From the IMG/VR virus record IMGVR_UViG_2563366975_000004: a stretch of 35,452 bases of DNA; one strand, written 5' to 3'. Made by a program: the position numbers and the translations under genes. The notes under the pieces are model-generated. The model saw only the letters and a program-made list of their open reading frames with translations. It did no database searches and was not told the DNA's origin. This stretch comes from a virus (Duplodnaviria; Heunggongvirae; Uroviricota; Caudoviricetes). Of the stretch, positions 1-33,519 are shown in pieces (position 1 is the stretch's first letter; the number at the start of each line of letters is the position of its first letter).

Positions 1-1131
1 TCAAATGACCAGTTTTTTCCATTCCTTACCGCGTGCGTCGTTGTAAATATCGGTCATTTTTTGATTCGAATGGCCTAGCAAAATTTTGGTATCAACCCCC
101 TGCTCTCTGAACAATCGCTCTGATAAAGATCTCTGCTCATGGAAAGAGGGTGGGGTGCCATTAGCACGCCAGTTGTAATCCACAGAATCCCGGGCTTTTT
201 TAAATGCAACGGTTAATGTTGCTGGCTTAACCATCCCGCCGCGCTTAGCTGTCCCTTTCGCGTGATGGTGGTGCAATAGCCACGGACTAAGAACGCAATC
301 GCGGCAGGATGACACTACATCATCCAGGGTGAGATTTAATTTATCGCAACGCAGAGCCAGAGGGATGGCAATCCGGGTTCCTGTTTTTTGCTGTTCGACA
401 TGAAGATAACCATCCCGGATATCCGAAAATTGCATTTTGCAAATATCTGAAAGGCGCTGGCCTGTCATCAGTGCCAGCAGCATACCGCGCTGTAAAAAGT
501 AACCATTCTTTTCCGCTGCGTTATAAATCATCATCCACTCATCAAAAGTCAGTCGCTGTCTTGATATCCGCACCTGCGGTTTTTTTGCCGATTCTGCAGG
601 GTTAAAGCCTGGCGGGACATCGCCCGTTTGCTGAGCTTCCCGGAAAACATCGATCAGTACTTTCCTGAAAATTTGTCCCATTCTGTTATGTCCTCTGGCC
701 TTGTACTCTTCCAGTACTGATACCACATCTTTTACGGTTATGGCATCTAACGGTCTGGTGCCAAAACGTTCATCAAATACCCTGAGAGGGGCCGCTTTCT
801 GTTTCAGCGTGTTGAGTTTGATCTCGCCGTTTTCATATCTTTCCTGTTGAATTTTTCTGTAATTATTCAGAAAAATGGTAACGGTTGATGAACCGCCGGT
901 ATCACTAATAATTTTCTCCTGCAGACTGAGCATTTGTTCCATTTGCTGCCGGGCAAGACGGCTGTTCGCTTCTGCTGCAATAGTTTCTGCCAGTTTCTGG
1001 TCAATACTGCCGAGACCGTGATTTTTGCCTGTTATGGGATGCCTGTAACGCCAGTAAACTTTGTTATTTCTTTTGTCAAAATACGGAGATAATCCCGGAA
1101 CATCGGTTTTATATTTTCGCGGGCGCGCCAT
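1..1131 (-). CDS. int: Phage integrase, tyrosine site-specific recombinase (376 aa)
   Basis: Complete ORF with stop at window position 1-3; C-terminal HxxR and LLGHSN...TDIY catalytic-tyrosine context typical of tyrosine recombinases; excisionase-like ORF overlaps its start. Confidence 0.85.
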   Translation of the reverse strand: MARPRKYKTDVPGLSPYFDKRNNKVYWRYRHPITGKNHGLGSIDQKLAETIAAEANSRLARQQMEQMLSLQEKIISDTGGSSTVTIFLNNYRKIQQERYENGEIKLNTLKQKAAPLRVFDERFGTRPLDAITVKDVVSVLEEYKARGHNRMGQIFRKVLIDVFREAQQTGDVPPGFNPAESAKKPQVRISRQRLTFDEWMMIYNAAEKNGYFLQRGMLLALMTGQRLSDICKMQFSDIRDGYLHVEQQKTGTRIAIPLALRCDKLNLTLDDVVSSCRDCVLSPWLLHHHHAKGTAKRGGMVKPATLTVAFKKARDSVDYNWRANGTPPSFHEQRSLSERLFREQGVDTKILLGHSNQKMTDIYNDARGKEWKKLVI

Positions 1132-16404: not shown

Positions 16405-16785
16405 ATGACTGAACGCATAGAATTTGTTTTGCCTTACCCGCCAACGGTGAACACTTACTGGCGTCGTCGTGGCAGCACATATTTTGTATCAAAAGCCGGG
16501 GAGCGTTATCGCCGGGCAGTGGCGCTTATTGTTCGCCAGCAGCGGCTGAAATTAAGCCTGTCCGGAAGGTTGGCAATAAAAATTATTGCAGAACCACCGG
16601 ATAAGCGCCGCCGTGACCTGGACAATATTCTGAAAGCGCCGCTGGATGCGCTGACGCATGCGGGGTTGCTAATGGACGATGAGCAGTTTGATGAAATCAA
16701 TATCGTTCGTGGTCAGCCAGTATCTGGTGGACGTCTGGGGGTGAAGATTTACCCCATAATGCATGAAGAGCAGGTCAAAAAATGA
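16405..16785 (+). CDS. rusA: Holliday-junction resolvase RusA (126 aa)
   Basis: N-terminal FVLPYPPTVNTYW and acidic catalytic region RRRDLDN...D typical of RusA. Confidence 0.85.
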   Translation: MTERIEFVLPYPPTVNTYWRRRGSTYFVSKAGERYRRAVALIVRQQRLKLSLSGRLAIKIIAEPPDKRRRDLDNILKAPLDALTHAGLLMDDEQFDEINIVRGQPVSGGRLGVKIYPIMHEEQVKK

Positions 16786-26309: not shown

Positions 26310-26843
26310 ATGAACGCAAAAATCAGATACGGCCTGTCGGCTGCCGTTCTGGCGCTGATTGCCGCTGGTGCGCCTGCGCCTGACATTCTCGACCAGTTTC
26401 TGGATGAAAAGGAAGGTAACCACACCACGGCATACCGTGATGGCGCGGGTATCTGGACCATCTGCCGCGGTGCCATCCTGGTGGATGGCAAACCTGTCGT
26501 TCCGGGCATGAAGTTGTCGAAGGAAAAATGCGACCGGGTTAACGCCATTGAGCGTGATAAGGCGCTGGCATGGGTGGAGAAAAACATCAGAGTGCCATTG
26601 AGTGAACCCCAGAAAGCGGGGATCGCGTCATTCTGTCCGTACAACATTGGCCCCGGTAAGTGTTTTCCGTCGACGTTTTATAAACGAATTAATGCAGGTG
26701 ATCGCAGGGGAGCGTGTGAGGCGATTCGCTGGTGGATTAAGGACGGTGGCAGGGACTGCCGTATTCGCTCAAATAACTGTTACGGTCAGGTATCCCGTCG
26801 TGACCAGGAGAGCGCGCTGGCGTGCTGGGGAATCGACAGATAA
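26310..26843 (+). CDS. Endolysin, lysozyme (GH24-like) with N-terminal signal-anchor-release-like segment (177 aa)
   Basis: N-terminal Gly/Ala-rich weakly hydrophobic segment GLSAAVLALIAAGAPA; catalytic E...D...T arrangement (DEKEGNHTTAYRDGAGIWTICRG). Confidence 0.85.
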   Translation: MNAKIRYGLSAAVLALIAAGAPAPDILDQFLDEKEGNHTTAYRDGAGIWTICRGAILVDGKPVVPGMKLSKEKCDRVNAIERDKALAWVEKNIRVPLSEPQKAGIASFCPYNIGPGKCFPSTFYKRINAGDRRGACEAIRWWIKDGGRDCRIRSNNCYGQVSRRDQESALACWGIDR

Positions 26844-27397: not shown

Positions 27398-27484
27398 ATG
27401 AGTGCTGAACTTATTCGGGCAATGGCATTTGCCATTCGTATTGTGGCCATTGCTGTTCTGGTCTGGGCAATCCGTTGGTGGTGA
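27398..27484 (+). CDS. Micro-ORF 4, hydrophobic peptide (28 aa; not in ORF track)
   Basis: [28 protein letters not shown]; stop overlaps Rz start (TGATATG). Confidence 0.3.
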
Positions 27485-27485
27485 T

Positions 27486-27980
27486 ATGAACCGTGTTCTG
27501 TGTGTGGTGATTATTGTCCTGCTGGTAGCCTGTGGTGTGCTTAGTCTGGGGCTGAATCATTACCGCGATAACGCCATCACCTACAAAGCGCAGCGCGATA
27601 AAAAAGTCAGTGAGCTGAAACTGGCGAACGCGACAATTACTGATATGCAGATACGCCAGCGTGATGTCGCTGAACTTGATGCCAGATACTCGAGGGAATT
27701 AGCCGATGCGAGAGCTGAAAATGAAACTCTGCGTGCTGATGTTGCCGCTGGTCGTAAGCGCCTGCGGATCAACGCCACCTGCTCCGGTACCGTGCGTGAA
27801 GCCACCGGCACCTCCGGCGTGGATAATGCAACCGGCCCCCGACTGGCAGACACCGCTGAACGGGATTATTTCATCCTCAGAGAACGGTTGATGACAATGC
27901 AGAAGCAGCTGGAAGGGGCGCAGGAATATATCCGCACTCAGTGCACTAAGCTGGCTTTTTATTATCCGGAGGATACATGA
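27486..27980 (+). CDS. Rz-like i-spanin (164 aa from internal ATG)
   Basis: N-terminal TM segment then coiled-coil-rich periplasmic domain; contains embedded Rz1-like ORF in +1 frame. Confidence 0.7.
27706..27891 (+). CDS. Rz1-like o-spanin lipoprotein embedded in Rz
   Basis: Lipobox LVVSAC followed by proline-rich sequence; entirely within Rz in another frame. Confidence 0.65.
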
Positions 27981-28201
27981 AGAAATTACGGGTAACCGTA
28001 GAACCTTTTCAGGGAACAATTCCGTTCCGTATTTTGCAGCGTGGTCGTGTTCTTGTTGAAGGTTCGTTCAGTGGTAAATGTACGCAATTACACTCCCGGA
28101 CCTTTCAGGTGAATGCCACGAATGAAGAGCTAACCGTGGAGTGTACGATGAATGCCGCTAAATGCCGCATGGTATCCGCTGCATTACAACCAGTGTGTTG
28201 A
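27977..28201 (+). CDS. Hypothetical protein (74 aa)
   Basis: ATG overlaps Rz stop; no family recognised. Confidence 0.3.
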
Positions 28202-28399
28202 GCGACCTTATTATCCATGCGCGGTATTGTCGCCGTATTCCTGCATTAACAGAGACCGCAGCCCGACAGGGAGACTCCTCTGCGCGAGTGTGCGGGGATA
28301 ATCAAAAACGATACACACCGGGGTTTACCGCGTTAACGGAGCGCGGCGTTGTCCCCTCATAGTCGCCTGTCCGGTGCGATGGTGGAAGAAACCGAACGT

Positions 28400-28600
28400 T
28401 CATTTCTCGTTATTTGTCATGCTGGCCGGGCGCAGATGCGTTGCATCTGTTGCCAGCCTTCTCCTGCAGGCTTCAATAACCCACGCTGAAAAGTTACCGG
28501 ACCCTTTATGCTCAAGGGCGATGTTGATCTGTTCAATTATGTGATTGGGGAAACGGATATTGCGGGTTGTGGTTCTGCGGGTCCGGTTTTTCGATGACAT
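28400..28600 (-). CDS. Ribbon-helix-helix (CopG/Arc-like) DNA-binding protein (66 aa from internal ATG)
   Basis: AAGGA RBS 8 nt upstream of ATG at 28600; RHH-like segment NIRFPNHIIEQINIALEHKGSGNFSAWVIEACRRRL. Confidence 0.5.
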   Translation of the reverse strand: MSSKNRTRRTTTRNIRFPNHIIEQINIALEHKGSGNFSAWVIEACRRRLATDATHLRPASMTNNEK

Positions 28601-28641
28601 ATTTATTTCCTTTACTGATTGCCATATGACGGGGATTTTAC

Positions 28642-29007
28642 ATGGCTGAGCTTCGTACACTCCAGAGCAGAATCAAAACACTGAATACCCGACGGGTGAA
28701 TATTCTGAAGGGGGAGCAGCGTCGTGTCAGTGGCAGTGCACGTGTTTCCCTCAAGCGTCATATCTGGCTGAGGGACGCCGGGCAGTGCTGTATCTGTGGT
28801 CGTGTGGTTGACCTCTGTGACAGTGAACTCGATCACCGAATTGCACTTCAGTTCGGTGGTGGTAATGAGGAGACGAATCTTTGGACGCTCTGTGCCGAAT
28901 GCCATCGACAAAAGTCTGCTCGTGAAGCGGCGAGTGGTATGCCGGACCCGACGCTGCCGGAGGTGTCCGGAGGTAGTGGCAGAGAGGACGACATCATCGG
29001 ACTGTAA
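28642..29007 (+). CDS. HNH endonuclease (121 aa), terminase-associated
   Basis: CxxC...DH...N...CxxCH arrangement (CCICGRVVDLCDSELDHRIALQFGGGNEETNLWTLCAECH); immediately upstream of cos-like region and terminase genes. Confidence 0.8.
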   Translation: MAELRTLQSRIKTLNTRRVNILKGEQRRVSGSARVSLKRHIWLRDAGQCCICGRVVDLCDSELDHRIALQFGGGNEETNLWTLCAECHRQKSAREAASGMPDPTLPEVSGGSGREDDIIGL

Positions 29008-29094
29008 CCCAACCCGGGGGGGTATCATCCGGCGTAAAAAACGATCGCTTTGGACACCGCGCCCCCTCTCACGCAGAGAAAAAATTCCCGTTTC

Positions 29095-29225
29095 AGGGCA
29101 GTTAACATGTTAACTGGCTGCCCGGGCATTTTTGCGGTTTTTATCTTTATTATTCAGTTTGTTGTGCGGAAAAAATGTTAACAGGCTTTTTCAGCAAATG
29201 TTAACCAGGCAGCAGTTAACATTTG
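29095..29225. promoter_or_regulatory. Candidate cos region: 18-bp perfect palindrome plus three TGTTAAC repeats
   Basis: CAGTTAACATGTTAACTG at 29099..29116 (flanked by gggcag/ctgccc); TGTTAAC copies at 29176, 29199 and 29215; lies between HNH and small-terminase genes. Confidence 0.4.
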
Positions 29226-29296
29226 CGGCATGAGACGCCGGGAAAAATGGGCTGAACCATACCCGGCTGAGTGCGTTCTGGACCCGGGAGGAGGCT

Positions 29297-29860
29297 GTGC
29301 TGACAACGCAAAAACGAAAATTTGCGCTGGCGCTCATGTCCGGGAAAAACAAAACAGCGTCAGCCATTGCCGCCGGTTATTCGGCGAAGACCGCCAGGGT
29401 TAAAGGCTCGCAGCTGGCAAAAGATCCGGAGGTGCTTGCGTTTATAGCCCGTAAACAATGCGAGACGGTGGAGGTGGATGAGGTTCCTGTTTACCGGCAG
29501 AAAAAATCAGAGCAGGAGGATAAACCCCGTCGCCGTGAGGCGGCTGCAATACCACAGCCGGACGAAAACAATCCGGAGATGCCACCGTCCGCGGTGATGT
29601 CTCCTGGTATTGAATATATGGAGGATGGTCTTCCCGATCCGGTGAAAGCCATGGGGCGGATCCTGGTGGAAAACCTCTGCATTGATCCGAAACTGGCACT
29701 GGATGCGGCCTGGCGTCTGGCGCAGTTCACGCACCATAAAAAAGGGGATACCGGGAAAAAATCGGCAAAAGGTGATGCCGCGAAAAAAGCGGCTAACCGT
29801 TTTGCGGTGCCACCGCCACCCCGACTGGTGGTGAATAACGATAATGAGGGCAACGGATGA
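29297..29860 (+). CDS. Terminase small subunit (187 aa, GTG start)
   Basis: GGGAGGAGG RBS; N-terminal HTH-like region; immediately upstream of large terminase. Confidence 0.7.
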   Translation: MLTTQKRKFALALMSGKNKTASAIAAGYSAKTARVKGSQLAKDPEVLAFIARKQCETVEVDEVPVYRQKKSEQEDKPRRREAAAIPQPDENNPEMPPSAVMSPGIEYMEDGLPDPVKAMGRILVENLCIDPKLALDAAWRLAQFTHHKKGDTGKKSAKGDAAKKAANRFAVPPPPRLVVNNDNEGNG

Positions 29861-31518
29861 TACCTGTATGGAGCACAGCCTGCCCGGACTGGGCAGAGCG
29901 CCTGAAAAAGGGGCTGTCGATTATTCCGGATCCGATTTATCCGGACGAGGCCGCACATGCCCTGGCGATTTTTAAACAACTGCGGATTGTGGATGCACCT
30001 GGTAGCCCTACGTTCGGGGAGTCCTGTGCACCGTGGGTGTTTGACCTGGTGGCGGCCCTGTTTGGCTCCTACGATGCGCAGACCGGTGTACGCCATATCA
30101 AGGAAGTTTTTATCCTTATCCCCAAGAAAAACTCGAAGTCCACGCTGGCCGCGGGGATCATGATGACTGCACTGTTACTGAACTGGCGGCAGGCGGCGGG
30201 TTACACGATTCTGGCCCCGACTGTGGAGGTGGCGGCCAACGCCTTCAACCCTGCCCGGGATATGGTACGACGTGACGATGATCTGGATGATCTCTGCCAG
30301 GTACAGACCCATATCCGGACCATCACCCACCGGGTGACAGACACCACCCTGAAGGTGGTGGCAGCCGATCCGAATACGGTGTCCGGTATCAAGTCCGTGG
30401 GTACGCTGATTGATGAGTTGTGGCTGTTTGGCAAGCAGTGCAAGGCGGAGGACATGTTACGTGAAGCCATAGGCGGCCTTGCCTCCCGCCCGGAAGGGTT
30501 TGTGGTGTATACGACCACCCAGTCGAATGAACCGCCCGCCGGGGTGTTCAGACAGAAACTGCAGTACGCCCGGGATGTGCGCGACGGCAAAATTCATGAT
30601 CCGCACTTTCTGCCGGTGATATTTGAACACCCTCCTGAAATGGTGGAAAGCGGGGCTCACCTGCTGATGGAAAACCTCGCCATGGTCAATCCTAATCTCG
30701 GCTATTCAGTGGATGAGGCCTTTCTGTACCGGGAGTACCGTAAAGCCCGGGAAGCCGGTGAAGAGACATTCCGGGGGTTCATGTCAAAACACGCCAATGT
30801 GGAAATTGGTCTTGCCCTGCGCTCTGACCGCTGGGCGGGGGCTGATTTCTGGGAAGAGCAGGGCCGTTGTATCAGCCTGGACGATATCCTGCGTCGTGCT
30901 GATGTGGTGACGGTGGGGATTGACGGCGGAGGGCTGGATGATCTGCTGGGGATGTATGTGATTGGGCGTGACCGGGAGACCCGCGAATGGCTGGGCTGGG
31001 GCCATGCCTGGGCGCATGAAACCGCGGTGGTCCGACGGAAGAGCGAGGCGTCCCGGTTTCAGGATCTTGTTGCCTGTGGAGATATGACCATTGTCCGGCG
31101 TGTCGGGGATGACACGGCGGAAGTGGCGGAATATGTGCGTCGCATTCATGAGGCTGAGTTACTGGACCATATCGGTATTGACCCGTCAGGGGTGGGGCAG
31201 ATTCTGGATTCACTGGCGGAAGCCGGGATCCCCGACGGAATTGTGGTGGGGATAAGCCAGGGCTGGAAACTGGGCGGGGCCATTAAAACCACCGAGCGCA
31301 AACTGGCTGAAGGGGTGCTGGTGCATGGTGACCAGCCCCTGATGGCCTGGTGTGTCGGCAATGCCCGGGTGGAGCCTAAAGGTAACGCCATTCTTATCAC
31401 CAAACAGGCCAGTGGACGGGGAAAAATTGACCCGCTGATGGCGCTGTTCAATGCGGTCTCCCTGATGTCCCTTAACCCGGAACCGAAAAAGAAAGAATAT
31501 GCGGTTTTTTTCATATAA
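29857..31518 (+). CDS. Terminase large subunit (553 aa)
   Basis: Walker A-like ILIPKKNSKST and acidic nuclease-domain region; size and position typical of TerL. Confidence 0.85.
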   Translation: MIPVWSTACPDWAERLKKGLSIIPDPIYPDEAAHALAIFKQLRIVDAPGSPTFGESCAPWVFDLVAALFGSYDAQTGVRHIKEVFILIPKKNSKSTLAAGIMMTALLLNWRQAAGYTILAPTVEVAANAFNPARDMVRRDDDLDDLCQVQTHIRTITHRVTDTTLKVVAADPNTVSGIKSVGTLIDELWLFGKQCKAEDMLREAIGGLASRPEGFVVYTTTQSNEPPAGVFRQKLQYARDVRDGKIHDPHFLPVIFEHPPEMVESGAHLLMENLAMVNPNLGYSVDEAFLYREYRKAREAGEETFRGFMSKHANVEIGLALRSDRWAGADFWEEQGRCISLDDILRRADVVTVGIDGGGLDDLLGMYVIGRDRETREWLGWGHAWAHETAVVRRKSEASRFQDLVACGDMTIVRRVGDDTAEVAEYVRRIHEAELLDHIGIDPSGVGQILDSLAEAGIPDGIVVGISQGWKLGGAIKTTERKLAEGVLVHGDQPLMAWCVGNARVEPKGNAILITKQASGRGKIDPLMALFNAVSLMSLNPEPKKKEYAVFFI

Positions 31519-31581: not shown

Positions 31582-33519
31582 GTGACTCTTAAACGGGCCT
31601 GTTCCCTGCTGACGGTGAAATCCTTCAGTGAGGATGAACGAGTGATCACCGGGATTGCGTCAACGCCTTCTCCGGATCGGGATGGTGACATCCTGGAGCC
31701 GGAGGGCGCGGAGTTTGGCAGTGCGATCCCGTTTCTCTGGCAGCATGACCATTCCCGCCCGGTGGGGCAGTGTACGGTGCGCCGGGTCAGCGAAGGGCTG
31801 GAAATCACGGCAACACTGGTGAAGCCCGTACCGGATATGCCGTCGCAACTGGCTGCCCGGCTGGATGAGGTCTGGGCGGCCATTAAGACCGGGCTGGTCA
31901 GGGGGCTGTCCGTGGGCTTCCGTCCCCATGAATACACCTTTCTGGACGGAGGCGGACTGCATTTTCTGCGCTGGGAACTGATGGAGGTGTCTGCCGTCAC
32001 CGTGCCCGCGAATGCGGAATGCACCATCCGGACCATTAAATCTTACGACCGCCCGTTTTCTGCCGCGTCCGGCAACCGGAAACCGGTGGTGAAAATCGCA
32101 TCTTCTGCCGGCGCTGCGGCACAGTCAACAACCGTTTTTCATAAGGAAAAGACCATAATGAATATTGGCGAACAGATTAAAAGTTTTGAAAACAAGCGTG
32201 CAGCGCTGGCAGCCTCCCTTGAGGAGGTCATGACCAAAGCCGCAGAGGAAGGGCGCACGCTGGATGTGGAGGAGGAAGAGCATTACGACAACACCGCAGC
32301 GGAAATCCGTCAGGTGGATGCGCACCTGAAGCGCCTGCGTGAACTGGAAGCCGGTAAGGCCGCCACGGCGCAGCCGGTGAAACAGGCCGGTAACGGGAAT
32401 GTGGCCGCGGTGGCTTCTGCGCCGGTGATCCGTGTGGAGCAGAAACTGGATAAGGGGATTGGCTTCGCCCGCTTTGCCAAATCGCTGGCTGCGGCTAAAG
32501 GCGTCCGATCTGAAGCCCTGGAAGTGGCCCGTCGTCAGTATCCGGATGACAGTCGTCTGCATCATGTCCTGAAATCGGCAGTGGGCGCGGGGACCACCAC
32601 GGATCCGCAGTGGGCAGGCAGCCTGTCTGAATATCAGGAATACGCACAGGACTTTATTGATTACCTGCGTCCGCAGACCATTATCGGGCGATTTGGTCAG
32701 GGCGGGATCCCTGCACTTCGTCAGGTGCCGTTCAATATCCGTGTGCACGCCCAGGTGTCCGGCGGTGCTGCCGGCTGGGTGGGTGAGGGTAAGGCAAAAC
32801 CCCTGACGAAGTTTGATTTTGAATCCATCACCTTCAGTCATGCGAAGGTGTCGGCCATTGCGGTACTGACGGAAGAATTGATCCGTTTTTCCAGTCCGGC
32901 TGCTGATGCACTGGTCCGTAATGCGCTGGCGGAAGCGGTGGTGGCGCGTCTGGATACAGACTTTGTGGACCCGAAAAAAGCCGCAGTGGCAGATGTCTCC
33001 CCGGCGTCCATCACCCATGATGTGAAGGGCACGGCATCAACCGGTAACCCGGATGCGGATGCAGAGGCTGCGTTTGGACAGTTTGTGGCAGCAAACCTGC
33101 AGCCCACCGGTGCGGTCTGGCTGATGTCCAGCACCAATGCCCTGGCACTGTCCATGCGTAAAAATGCGCTGGGTCAGAAGGAATACCCGGACATGACCCT
33201 GCTGGGTGGCTCCTTCCAGGGGCTGCCGGTGATTGTCTCCCAGTACGTGGGTGACCAGCTGGTGCTGGTGAATGCCCCGGATATTTATCTGGCGGATGAC
33301 GGCGGCGTGGCAGTGGATATGTCCCGCGAGGCATCACTGGAAATGCAGTCTGAGCCGGGCGGCGACAGTACCACGCCGTCCCCGGTGGAGCTGGTTTCCA
33401 TGTTCCAGACAGGCAGCGTGGCCATCCGTGCGGAGCGCTGGATCAACTGGCGTCGTCGCCGTACCGCGGCGGTGGCGGTGATCACCGGAGTGAACTACGG
33501 CAGTGCGTCCGGCGGCTGA
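31582..33519 (+). CDS. Prohead protease - scaffold - major capsid protein fusion, HK97-like (645 aa)
   Basis: N-terminal HK97-protease-like motif (GIAS...DRDGDILEPEGAEFG...PFLWQHD...PVG), central coiled-coil linker, C-terminal HK97-fold capsid-like region. Confidence 0.7.
   Translation: MTLKRACSLLTVKSFSEDERVITGIASTPSPDRDGDILEPEGAEFGSAIPFLWQHDHSRPVGQCTVRRVSEGLEITATLVKPVPDMPSQLAARLDEVWAAIKTGLVRGLSVGFRPHEYTFLDGGGLHFLRWELMEVSAVTVPANAECTIRTIKSYDRPFSAASGNRKPVVKIASSAGAAAQSTTVFHKEKTIMNIGEQIKSFENKRAALAASLEEVMTKAAEEGRTLDVEEEEHYDNTAAEIRQVDAHLKRLRELEAGKAATAQPVKQAGNGNVAAVASAPVIRVEQKLDKGIGFARFAKSLAAAKGVRSEALEVARRQYPDDSRLHHVLKSAVGAGTTTDPQWAGSLSEYQEYAQDFIDYLRPQTIIGRFGQGGIPALRQVPFNIRVHAQVSGGAAGWVGEGKAKPLTKFDFESITFSHAKVSAIAVLTEELIRFSSPAADALVRNALAEAVVARLDTDFVDPKKAAVADVSPASITHDVKGTASTGNPDADAEAAFGQFVAANLQPTGAVWLMSSTNALALSMRKNALGQKEYPDMTLLGGSFQGLPVIVSQYVGDQLVLVNAPDIYLADDGGVAVDMSREASLEMQSEPGGDSTTPSPVELVSMFQTGSVAIRAERWINWRRRRTAAVAVITGVNYGSASGG

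Follow-up and report, generated by a model that had tools for sequence, protein, structure and literature searches.

The 35,452-nt viral sequence analysed here (IMG/VR record IMGVR_UViG_2563366975_000004, Caudoviricetes; the whole stretch is referred to as the window) carries, between the gene of an HNH endonuclease and the gene of the small terminase subunit (TerS), an intergenic region of 289 bp with the features of a cohesive-end (cos) packaging site. Positions 29016-29222 of the window probably constitute a cos site of HK97-type, HNH-assisted packaging, at which TerS would act on an array of five repeated sites and 10-nt 3' cohesive ends would be produced at 29058-29067. The elements of the region are as follows:

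29016-29022, plus strand: run of seven G residues, 45 nt upstream of the predicted top-strand nick
29042-29057, plus strand: conserved left flank of the predicted cut (CGATCGC...GGACAC), nearly invariant in Enterobacterial relatives
29058-29067, plus strand: cosN equivalent CGCGCCCCCT, the 10-nt 3' cohesive end predicted from the ends of relatives
29068-29098, plus strand: conserved right flank of the predicted cut, CTCACGCAGAGAAAAAATTCCCG..., which includes A6 at +12 to +17 (A6TT to +19)
29099-29116: 18-bp perfect palindrome CAGTTAACATGTTAACTG, i.e. two inverted ATGTTAACTG sites
29117-29174, plus strand: AT-rich spacer with T-tracts about 10 bp apart, as read from the sequence, and possibly intrinsically bent
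29175-29184 (plus), 29198-29207 (plus) and 29213-29222 (minus): three further ATGTTAAC sites

The position of the cut was deduced from two groups of relatives with mapped termini. The Shiga toxin 1 (Stx1) phage Lys8385Vzw was assigned by PhageTerm to the cos class with cohesive 3' ends, and CGCCCCCCCT was reported as the cos sequence at its genome end (PMC7946995). The large terminase subunit (TerL) of this phage is 97.6 % identical to that of the window. Its record (MT225100) ends with ...GGACACCGCCCCCCCT and starts with CTCACGCAGAG (CTCACGCAGAGAAAAAATTCCCG...), and the junction of the two aligns to window positions 29067/29068; position 4 of the decamer is G in the window and C in Lys8385Vzw. 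Temperate phages of Acinetobacter possess a 10-nt 3' end, CGCCCCCCAT, proven by a heat/cool restriction assay beside PhageTerm (PMC7354433). Their TerL is 52 % identical to the window TerL, and the junction between the end of the record (...GGACACCGCCCCCCAT) and its start (CGCACGCACAAAAAAAATTCCC...) is clearly homologous to the window junction, with GGACACC... on the left and C.CACGCA..AAAAAATTCCC on the right. Since the ends of Lys8385Vzw and of the Acinetobacter phages both align to 29058-29067, the genome is almost certainly cut at this G+C-rich decamer, 31 bp upstream of the palindrome and not inside it. The nicks are predicted after 29067 in the top strand and before 29058 in the bottom strand. 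Contigs ending near the conserved sequence (L091 and L184) were excluded as evidence for ends, as they may reflect assembly breaks.

The earlier note on this DNA, made from the sequence alone, had taken the palindrome itself for the cos-like cleavage site. The palindrome is perfect, it lies between the HNH gene and terS, and symmetric sites are common nuclease targets; cleavage there is nevertheless highly improbable, as the ends of the relatives map to the decamer and the centre of the palindrome serves as the terS start codon in a class of relatives described below. The palindrome occupies instead a cosB-like position, between the cut and terS.

The G-run upstream of the cut is also present in the Enterobacterial relatives, in Azorhizophilus and in the satellite-like island L147 (see below), and the Acinetobacter phage has a G-run at the same 45-nt distance from the nick, which makes this run a candidate cosQ-like element. 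Insertions were seen at the same place: in PPompW prophages, which lack the lysis genes, DUF3950 and HNH upstream of the insertion sequence, ISEc20 of the IS110 family (L207, 1546-3004) is inserted at the cos G-run (window approximately 29019-29023), and a junction in contig L174 falls at this position too. The G-run may be a preferred target of ISEc20, the insertion of which would disable packaging.

The palindrome taken by itself is weak evidence, because 0.14 perfect 18-bp palindromes are expected in the 35-kb window and two are present, so that its occurrence by chance is only mildly improbable. The repeats around it are a different matter. TGTTAAC occurs 12 times in the window versus 3.8 times expected, and six of the 12 copies fall within 29101-29221. 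The 8-mer ATGTTAAC is found five times in 29101-29222 and once in the remaining 35 kb, and the crowding of five GTTAAC motifs into 121 bp was not equalled in any of 200,000 random placements; the clustering is not due to chance. The five copies of ATGTTAACNG comprise the palindrome pair, 29099-29108 (minus) and 29107-29116 (plus), and the three downstream sites, the last two of which sit in a 12-bp inverted repeat, GCAAATGTTAAC / GTTAACATTTGC. The earlier note was correct in placing an HNH gene (28642-29007) directly upstream of terS with an 18-bp perfect palindrome between them (29099-29116). The three TGTTAAC repeats that it listed do exist, two of them being direct and one inverted.

Relatives were collected by a TerL scan, which fetched the relevant loci from 80 bacterial genomes, and a scan of genome contigs with TerS yielded no confirmed relatives. 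In about half of the 80 TerL-family loci a detectable HNH gene lies directly upstream of terS. Salmonella phage FSL SP-016 and prophages of Enterobacter, Citrobacter and Entomohabitans encode HNH proteins of 61-69 % and TerS proteins of 33-48 % identity to those of the window, and the same elements carry approximately 100 bp almost identical to window 29012-29116. The conserved core follows the pattern GGGGGGGTAT..CGATCGC..GGACACCGCGCCCCCTCTCA..CAGAAAAAAT.CCCC.TTGGAGGGTGTTAAC[A/G]TGTTAACAG. A nhmmer profile of this core gave 52 hit lines at E <= 10 and 37 at E <= 0.01, from Gamma- and Betaproteobacterial loci. All hits at E <= 0.1 were on the plus strand and the three minus-strand ones were weak (E 0.16-9.2); those hits that were compared with the tblastn coordinates of TerS lay just upstream of terS.

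The core-bearing elements fall into two discrete classes. In 120 viral contigs, terS starts either at +55 from GGACACC (short class) or at +245 with five GTTAAC motifs in between (long class, to which the window belongs), and no intermediates were found among these contigs. In short-class relatives (L003, L004, L026, L027 and L041 among them) the central [A/G]TG of the palindrome is the terS start codon, GGAGG is located just upstream, and the TerS N-terminus reads MLT.QKRK. Because there are two discrete classes and no intermediates, the segment 29117-29296 is regarded, from this sequence comparison, as a lineage-specific insertion of 190 bp which moved terS away from the palindrome. The former ribosome-binding site of the long class, once GGAGGG, has degenerated to CAGGGC. 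The palindrome is conserved at 100 % in 43 of the 44 unique long-class variants, and the five motifs are intact in all 44, the spacing of the downstream three being unchanged. In L154 and L147 the spacer 29117-29174 has diverged in sequence and kept its length.

It could be argued that function resides in the conserved core alone or, possibly, in the core plus the palindrome, and that the inserted 190 bp, which bring three additional ATGTTAAC copies, are a neutral remnant of duplication events involving part of the 5' end of terS, or the scar of a recombination. The existence of two classes (+55 and +245) with nothing between them would fit such an origin, as would the ability of short-class phages to manage with the palindrome only, and the 5' end of terS is similar to the copy at 29198 (ATGTTAAC...GCAG.AG...TTTGCG...CCGGGAAAAA, at an offset of 99-102 bp). 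The duplication signal was, however, not significant when local alignments were compared with shuffled sequences (p 0.065-0.08). Moreover, the extra copies are intact in 44 of 44 long-class variants and, despite divergence of the intervening sequence there, in L147, and additional non-coding copies occur also in the Azorhizophilus element (L071) and in the Acinetobacter phage. The insertion is thus unlikely to be a mere relic. Repeats of this type are a wider feature of these loci: in the 110 nt past the core of 35 loci, GTTAA/TTAAC words were counted 76 times versus 3.1 expected. GTTAAC is present three times around the terS start in the elements of Azorhizophilus and Oceanisphaera; in the Acinetobacter phage, AGTTAAA is repeated three times between the cut and terS. 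Loci with another TerS N-terminus (MAGVKGKSGG...) have no GTTAA motif; two loci of this type carry other repeats (AATCAAAT), which also overlap the start codon.

Some smaller features of the repeat region were also noted. Between copies 3 and 4 (window 29183-29197) there is a dyad around TTTTT, the arms of which read GCT..AGC in the window, CCGA..TCGG (L154) or TACC..GGTA (L147); the changes look compensatory, and with stems of 3-4 bp this may be chance. Every plus-strand ATGTTAAC copy opens a mini-ORF (window 29107-29233). The mini-ORFs of copies 1 and 2 stop at a TAA inside the following copy, as both spacings, 68 and 23 bp, equal 2 modulo 3, and the third ends at the TGA 29231-29233. The encoded peptides vary among the variants and the mini-ORFs are probably not coding. 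A small membrane peptide starting at ATG 29107 was considered and rejected, the product being 24 aa long here (MLTGCPGIFAVFIFIIQFVVRKKC) and 14 and 4 aa long in L154 and L147, respectively.

Independent delimitation of the region comes from a satellite-like island of approximately 11 kb (L147, 1-11200; L212, 2072-13300), inserted in E. coli S1-CAM-02-A between tRNA-Pro/yejM and yejO. The island encodes an integrase, Icd-like, Ash, primase, SSB and PerC proteins, a capsid protein like lambda gpE and a decoration protein like gpD, and no HNH, TerS or TerL was found among its genes. For a satellite it is unusual to have a capsid and decoration pair in the absence of other head genes. The island has in common with the window only the segment 29051-29223, at 79 % identity, within which the core, the palindrome and the three downstream motifs are intact and equally spaced, the sequence between them having diverged. 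The similarity stops right after the fifth motif (29223), and a G-run is present upstream. By analogy with other cos satellites, the island would be packaged by the terminase of a helper. Since a satellite using a helper's terminase must keep the packaging signal in cis, the functional cos would extend from approximately 29016 to 29222.

Two explanations not involving packaging were weighed. The palindrome can fold into an RNA hairpin, and T-runs occur 12 nt further on, as expected of a terminator or attenuator between the HNH gene and terS. A terminator scan was negative, the predicted fold of 29085-29150 (-16.4 kcal/mol, z = -1.26) was matched by 27 of 200 shuffled sequences, and the T-run context is not kept in L147 and L154, all of which make a hairpin function extremely improbable. 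The second explanation treats the palindrome and the repeats as operators for a regulator of terS or of the late genes, the obvious candidate being the product of the gene situated on the opposite strand upstream of the HNH gene:

28400-28600 (ATG 28598-28600), minus strand: DUF3950 (YlcI/YnfO) gene, 66 aa; Pfam DUF3950 E 3e-19; phrog_949, function unknown

Proteins of the ribbon-helix-helix (RHH) type bind inverted and tandem repeats, the DUF3950 gene is 500 bp away, and a sigma-70-like match on the minus strand (29204-29175) overlaps the repeats. The motifs are nevertheless found where DUF3950 is missing, namely in each of the 26 short-class loci, in the satellite and in the Acinetobacter phages. 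Phage lambda (NC_001416) provides the converse case. It contains an intact 64-aa DUF3950 homologue, unannotated there, on the minus strand at 48109-48303 (L084, 2210-2404); it is the last open reading frame before the right cos end, approximately 200 bp away, and is 86.5 % identical to the window protein over 52 aa. The N-terminal 50 residues are almost identical, yet there is no GTTAAC in the right-most 2.6 kb of lambda. Upstream of the DUF3950 gene, lambda and the window cannot be aligned and show no conservation, and a shared operator was rejected. An operator role of the repeats, for DUF3950 or another protein, is on these grounds very unlikely.

Members of the DUF3950 family come almost exclusively from E. 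coli; they hardly vary over residues 1-50 and have a hypervariable C-terminal tail. The gene was present in 23 of 24 long-class loci and absent from all 26 short-class relatives outside E. coli that have the HNH-cos-TerS core. Because lambda has the gene next to an unrelated terminase and no HNH, and the short-class relatives do without it, the DUF3950 gene is considered, on the basis of this distribution, to travel with the right end of E. coli lambdoid phages and not with the packaging module. This agrees with the view of the earlier note that the oppositely oriented RHH gene stands outside the standard arrangement. No link to packaging was found that would support the regulatory role also proposed there, the repeats occurring without DUF3950 and the lambda right end lacking GTTAAC. 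The alternative suggestion, an orphan antitoxin-like gene, was followed by a search for a toxin: downstream, the interval 28020-28400 does not fully contain any minus-strand ORF of 40 aa or more, and the nearest one (27699-28019) ends 380 bp away. The AlphaFold2 monomer (pLDDT 70.5) has a coil at residues 1-18 and helices at 19-32 and 34-55, and the sequence pattern consists of RNIRFP, a helix, GSGNFS and a second helix. Foldseek matched ParD2, Arc and a TCP domain, all at E >= 3 and thus not significantly. DUF3950 gave no BLASTP alignment to Arc, no sequence match in the PDB and no Pfam RHH or other family, and homology to Arc by sequence was rejected. An Arc-like RHH fold is plausible from the sequence pattern and from this modest model. 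Our best guess is that DUF3950 is an accessory (moron-like) DNA-binding protein expressed apart from the late operon.

The genes downstream of DUF3950 encode the packaging and head proteins:

28642-29007, plus strand: HNH endonuclease, 121 aa; PF01844 E 2.7e-7; phrog_589 (HNH endonuclease) E 2e-44
29297-29860, plus strand: TerS of Terminase_2 type; PF03592 E 1.3e-8 (residues 2-57); phrog_641
29857-31518, plus strand: TerL of HK97 type; PF03354 and PF20441 (ATPase and nuclease domains)
31582-33519, plus strand: prohead protease (S78) fused to an HK97-fold major capsid protein; PF04586 and PF05065
33716-35452, plus strand: HK97-family portal; PF04860 E 2.5e-81; the ORF extends beyond the window end

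The only PDB match of the window TerL was HK97 TerL (6z6d, E 1e-9), and its identity to HK97 gp2 is 23 % (BLASTP E 2e-11). In the HNH protein, the PF01844 domain covers residues 49-94 and includes the CICG...DH...N...CAECH motif, of the beta-beta-alpha-Me HNH type with zinc-binding cysteines. HK97 gp74, an HNH protein, stimulates cos cleavage by TerL in vitro, and by analogy we infer that the window HNH protein is an accessory nuclease for cos cleavage. The start codon of terS is GTG, preceded by the Shine-Dalgarno sequence GGGAGGAGG at 29286-29294. TerS showed no similarity to HK97 gp1. Its N-terminal helix-turn-helix aligns weakly with the DNA-binding domains of SPP1/SF6 G1P; this domain is the best-conserved part of the protein between the long and short classes, the N-terminal 54 residues being approximately 70 % identical between the window and SP-016 versus 48 % for the whole protein. 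The assignment to an HK97-type HNH-cos module, made by the earlier note, stands as far as TerL, the portal (PF04860), the capsid (PF05065), the HNH gene adjoining cos and terS, and the 10-nt 3' ends of the relatives are concerned; it does not extend to TerS, which is not HK97-like. The module thus shares most properties of the HNH-assisted cos class and lacks a TerS of the gp1 type.

The following mechanism is proposed. During late growth, the N-terminal helix-turn-helix domains of TerS would bind the five ATGTTAAC sites, i.e. the palindrome and the sites within 29175-29222, the palindromic pair being separated from the distal triplet by the T-tract spacer, which may bend. Bound TerS would position TerL on the decamer 29058-29067, approximately 30 bp away, and the HNH protein would aid TerL in making the staggered nicks from which the 10-nt 3' cohesive ends would result. 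Packaging would then run rightward through terS and terL and stop at the next cos.

Several observations weigh against this scheme or restrict it. The position and type of the ends in the window are deduced by homology from relatives in which they were mapped; the PhageTerm calls are computational, and bench confirmation is limited to the Acinetobacter ends. That TerS recognises the repeats as an array analogous to cosB is suggested by comparative data only. The consensus of integration host factor (IHF), WATCAANNNNTTR, had no match with up to one mismatch within 29008-29296, which leaves the analogy to lambda cosB incomplete. In HK97, TerS binds +15 to +29, the A-tract included (PMC11331095); A6TT at +12 to +19 of the window resembles that site, and the primary TerS site could be there instead. 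The similarity of the HNH protein to HK97 gp74 is marginal (pairwise E 0.096). In the short class, one half of the palindrome is the coding sequence for Leu-Thr (TTAAC) of TerS and the other half lies between the ribosome-binding site and the start codon; the conservation of the motif and its enrichment (76 versus 3.1) could therefore stem partly from translational or coding constraint and from shared ancestry. The non-coding copies of the motif are the informative ones.

An inverted GTTAA repeat has its centre at the start codon of terS and has been conserved from Burkholderiales to Enterobacteria. A tentative and rather doubtful extension of the packaging mechanism would make this repeat an ancient TerS packaging site which served at the same time as an operator for autoregulation of TerS, at the level of translation or transcription. 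In the E. coli Pankowvirus lineage the 190-bp insertion would have uncoupled the two roles, the array would have expanded to five sites, and the satellite would parasitise it.

At this locus the right and left ends of a lambdoid prophage of the Pankowvirus-like BP-4795/2851 type meet. Sequence identity of the region to BP-4795, 2851, 1717, YYZ-2008 and many Stx1a/Stx2 prophage records (genus Pankowvirus) amounts to 92-99.8 %, and the intergenic segment was found in 1277 of 5426 complete E. coli genomes, in up to seven copies each. The remaining features of the window are:

1-1131, minus strand: integrase, at one end of the lambdoid prophage window
16782-17603: antiterminator Q
26310-26843: endolysin
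27402-27980: Rz

Between Q and the endolysin there are genes for a DNA methylase, tRNA-Met and tRNA-Arg. An IS21-like pair on the minus strand (window 21661-23912), composed of a 499-aa protein with a Mu-transposase C-terminal domain and a 251-aa ORF, is located between Q with the tRNAs and the lysis genes, where related Stx phages have stx. No stx was present among the annotated ORFs of the window, and no search aimed at stx was made. The segment 28202-28399 is variable among relatives: JLK-2012, Lys8385Vzw and some Stx1a phages have an insertion of approximately 600 bp with a 'TonB family protein', and other relatives have one of approximately 200 bp. The ORF 27977-28201 matches only the C-terminal part of the longer phrog_2571 family and looks like a remnant.

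The module and its cos ends have already been published for a near-identical phage, and the system is of an ordinary, known kind; the general picture of phage packaging is unchanged. The architecture of the repeats, the overlap of the motif with the terS start in relatives and the cos-bearing satellite appear, on a limited literature search, to be undescribed. The cos region occurs in many Shiga-toxin phages. The predicted cut position, and the approximately 200 bp that would suffice for packaging, may be used to predict mobilisable prophages and satellites, to read virome pile-ups and to design cos transduction vectors. The delimitation by the satellite and the overlap with the terS start lead to testable hypotheses on how a G1P-type TerS works with an HK97-type TerL and an HNH protein.

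Among known systems, HK97 shares with the window the HNH gene as the last before cos and terS-terL as the first after it, the TerL family, the HK97-type portal and capsid, the 10-nt 3' ends seen in the relatives, and the A-tract just downstream of the cut. In contrast to HK97, TerS is of the Terminase_2/G1P type and unrelated to gp1, the HNH protein is only marginally like gp74, the protease-capsid fusion precedes the portal after TerL, and the proposed multi-copy GTTAAC array spans +32 to +155, whereas HK97 has a single 15-bp site at +15 to +29. SPP1 G1P recognises repeated boxes flanking the cut (pacL/pacR), and the TerS of SPP1/SF6 shares with that of the window the Terminase_2 family and the N-terminal helix-turn-helix; SPP1, however, packages by the headful (pac) route, has another TerL and lacks an HNH protein.

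The lambda cos (cosQ-cosN-cosB, with R3-I1-R2-R1) is likewise tripartite, with an upstream element, a nick site and a repeat array that is interrupted by a bendable AT-rich stretch and precedes the small terminase gene; the lambdoid backbone and the DUF3950 gene beside cos are further likenesses. The Nu1/A terminase is unrelated, there is no HNH in lambda, the overhangs are 12-nt 5' ones, the repeat sequence is another, and the IHF site of cosB has no consensus counterpart in the window cos region. As regards cos satellites (P4 with P2, phage-inducible chromosomal islands of E. coli with lambda/phi80, and SaPIbov5 with HNH-cos staphylococcal phages), the island L147/L212 resembles them in having a helper-type cos and no terminase, and differs from them in also having lambda E-like capsid and D-like decoration genes.

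The Acinetobacter phages have a TerL of 52 % identity, an HNH gene near the right end, a homologous cos core and repeats between the cut and terS; unlike the window, they have three direct repeats without a palindrome and no DUF3950, and their terS starts 72 nt past the cut. The closest systems are those of Lys8385Vzw and the Pankowvirus-like Stx phages BP-4795, 2851, 1717 and YYZ-2008, the intergenic regions and TerL proteins of which are 95-99 % and 97-99 % identical, respectively, to those of the window. The window differs from these Stx phages in the IS21-like element that it carries between Q and the lysis genes and in the absence of stx from its annotated ORFs, and shares with them the gene order DUF3950-HNH-cos-TerS-TerL.

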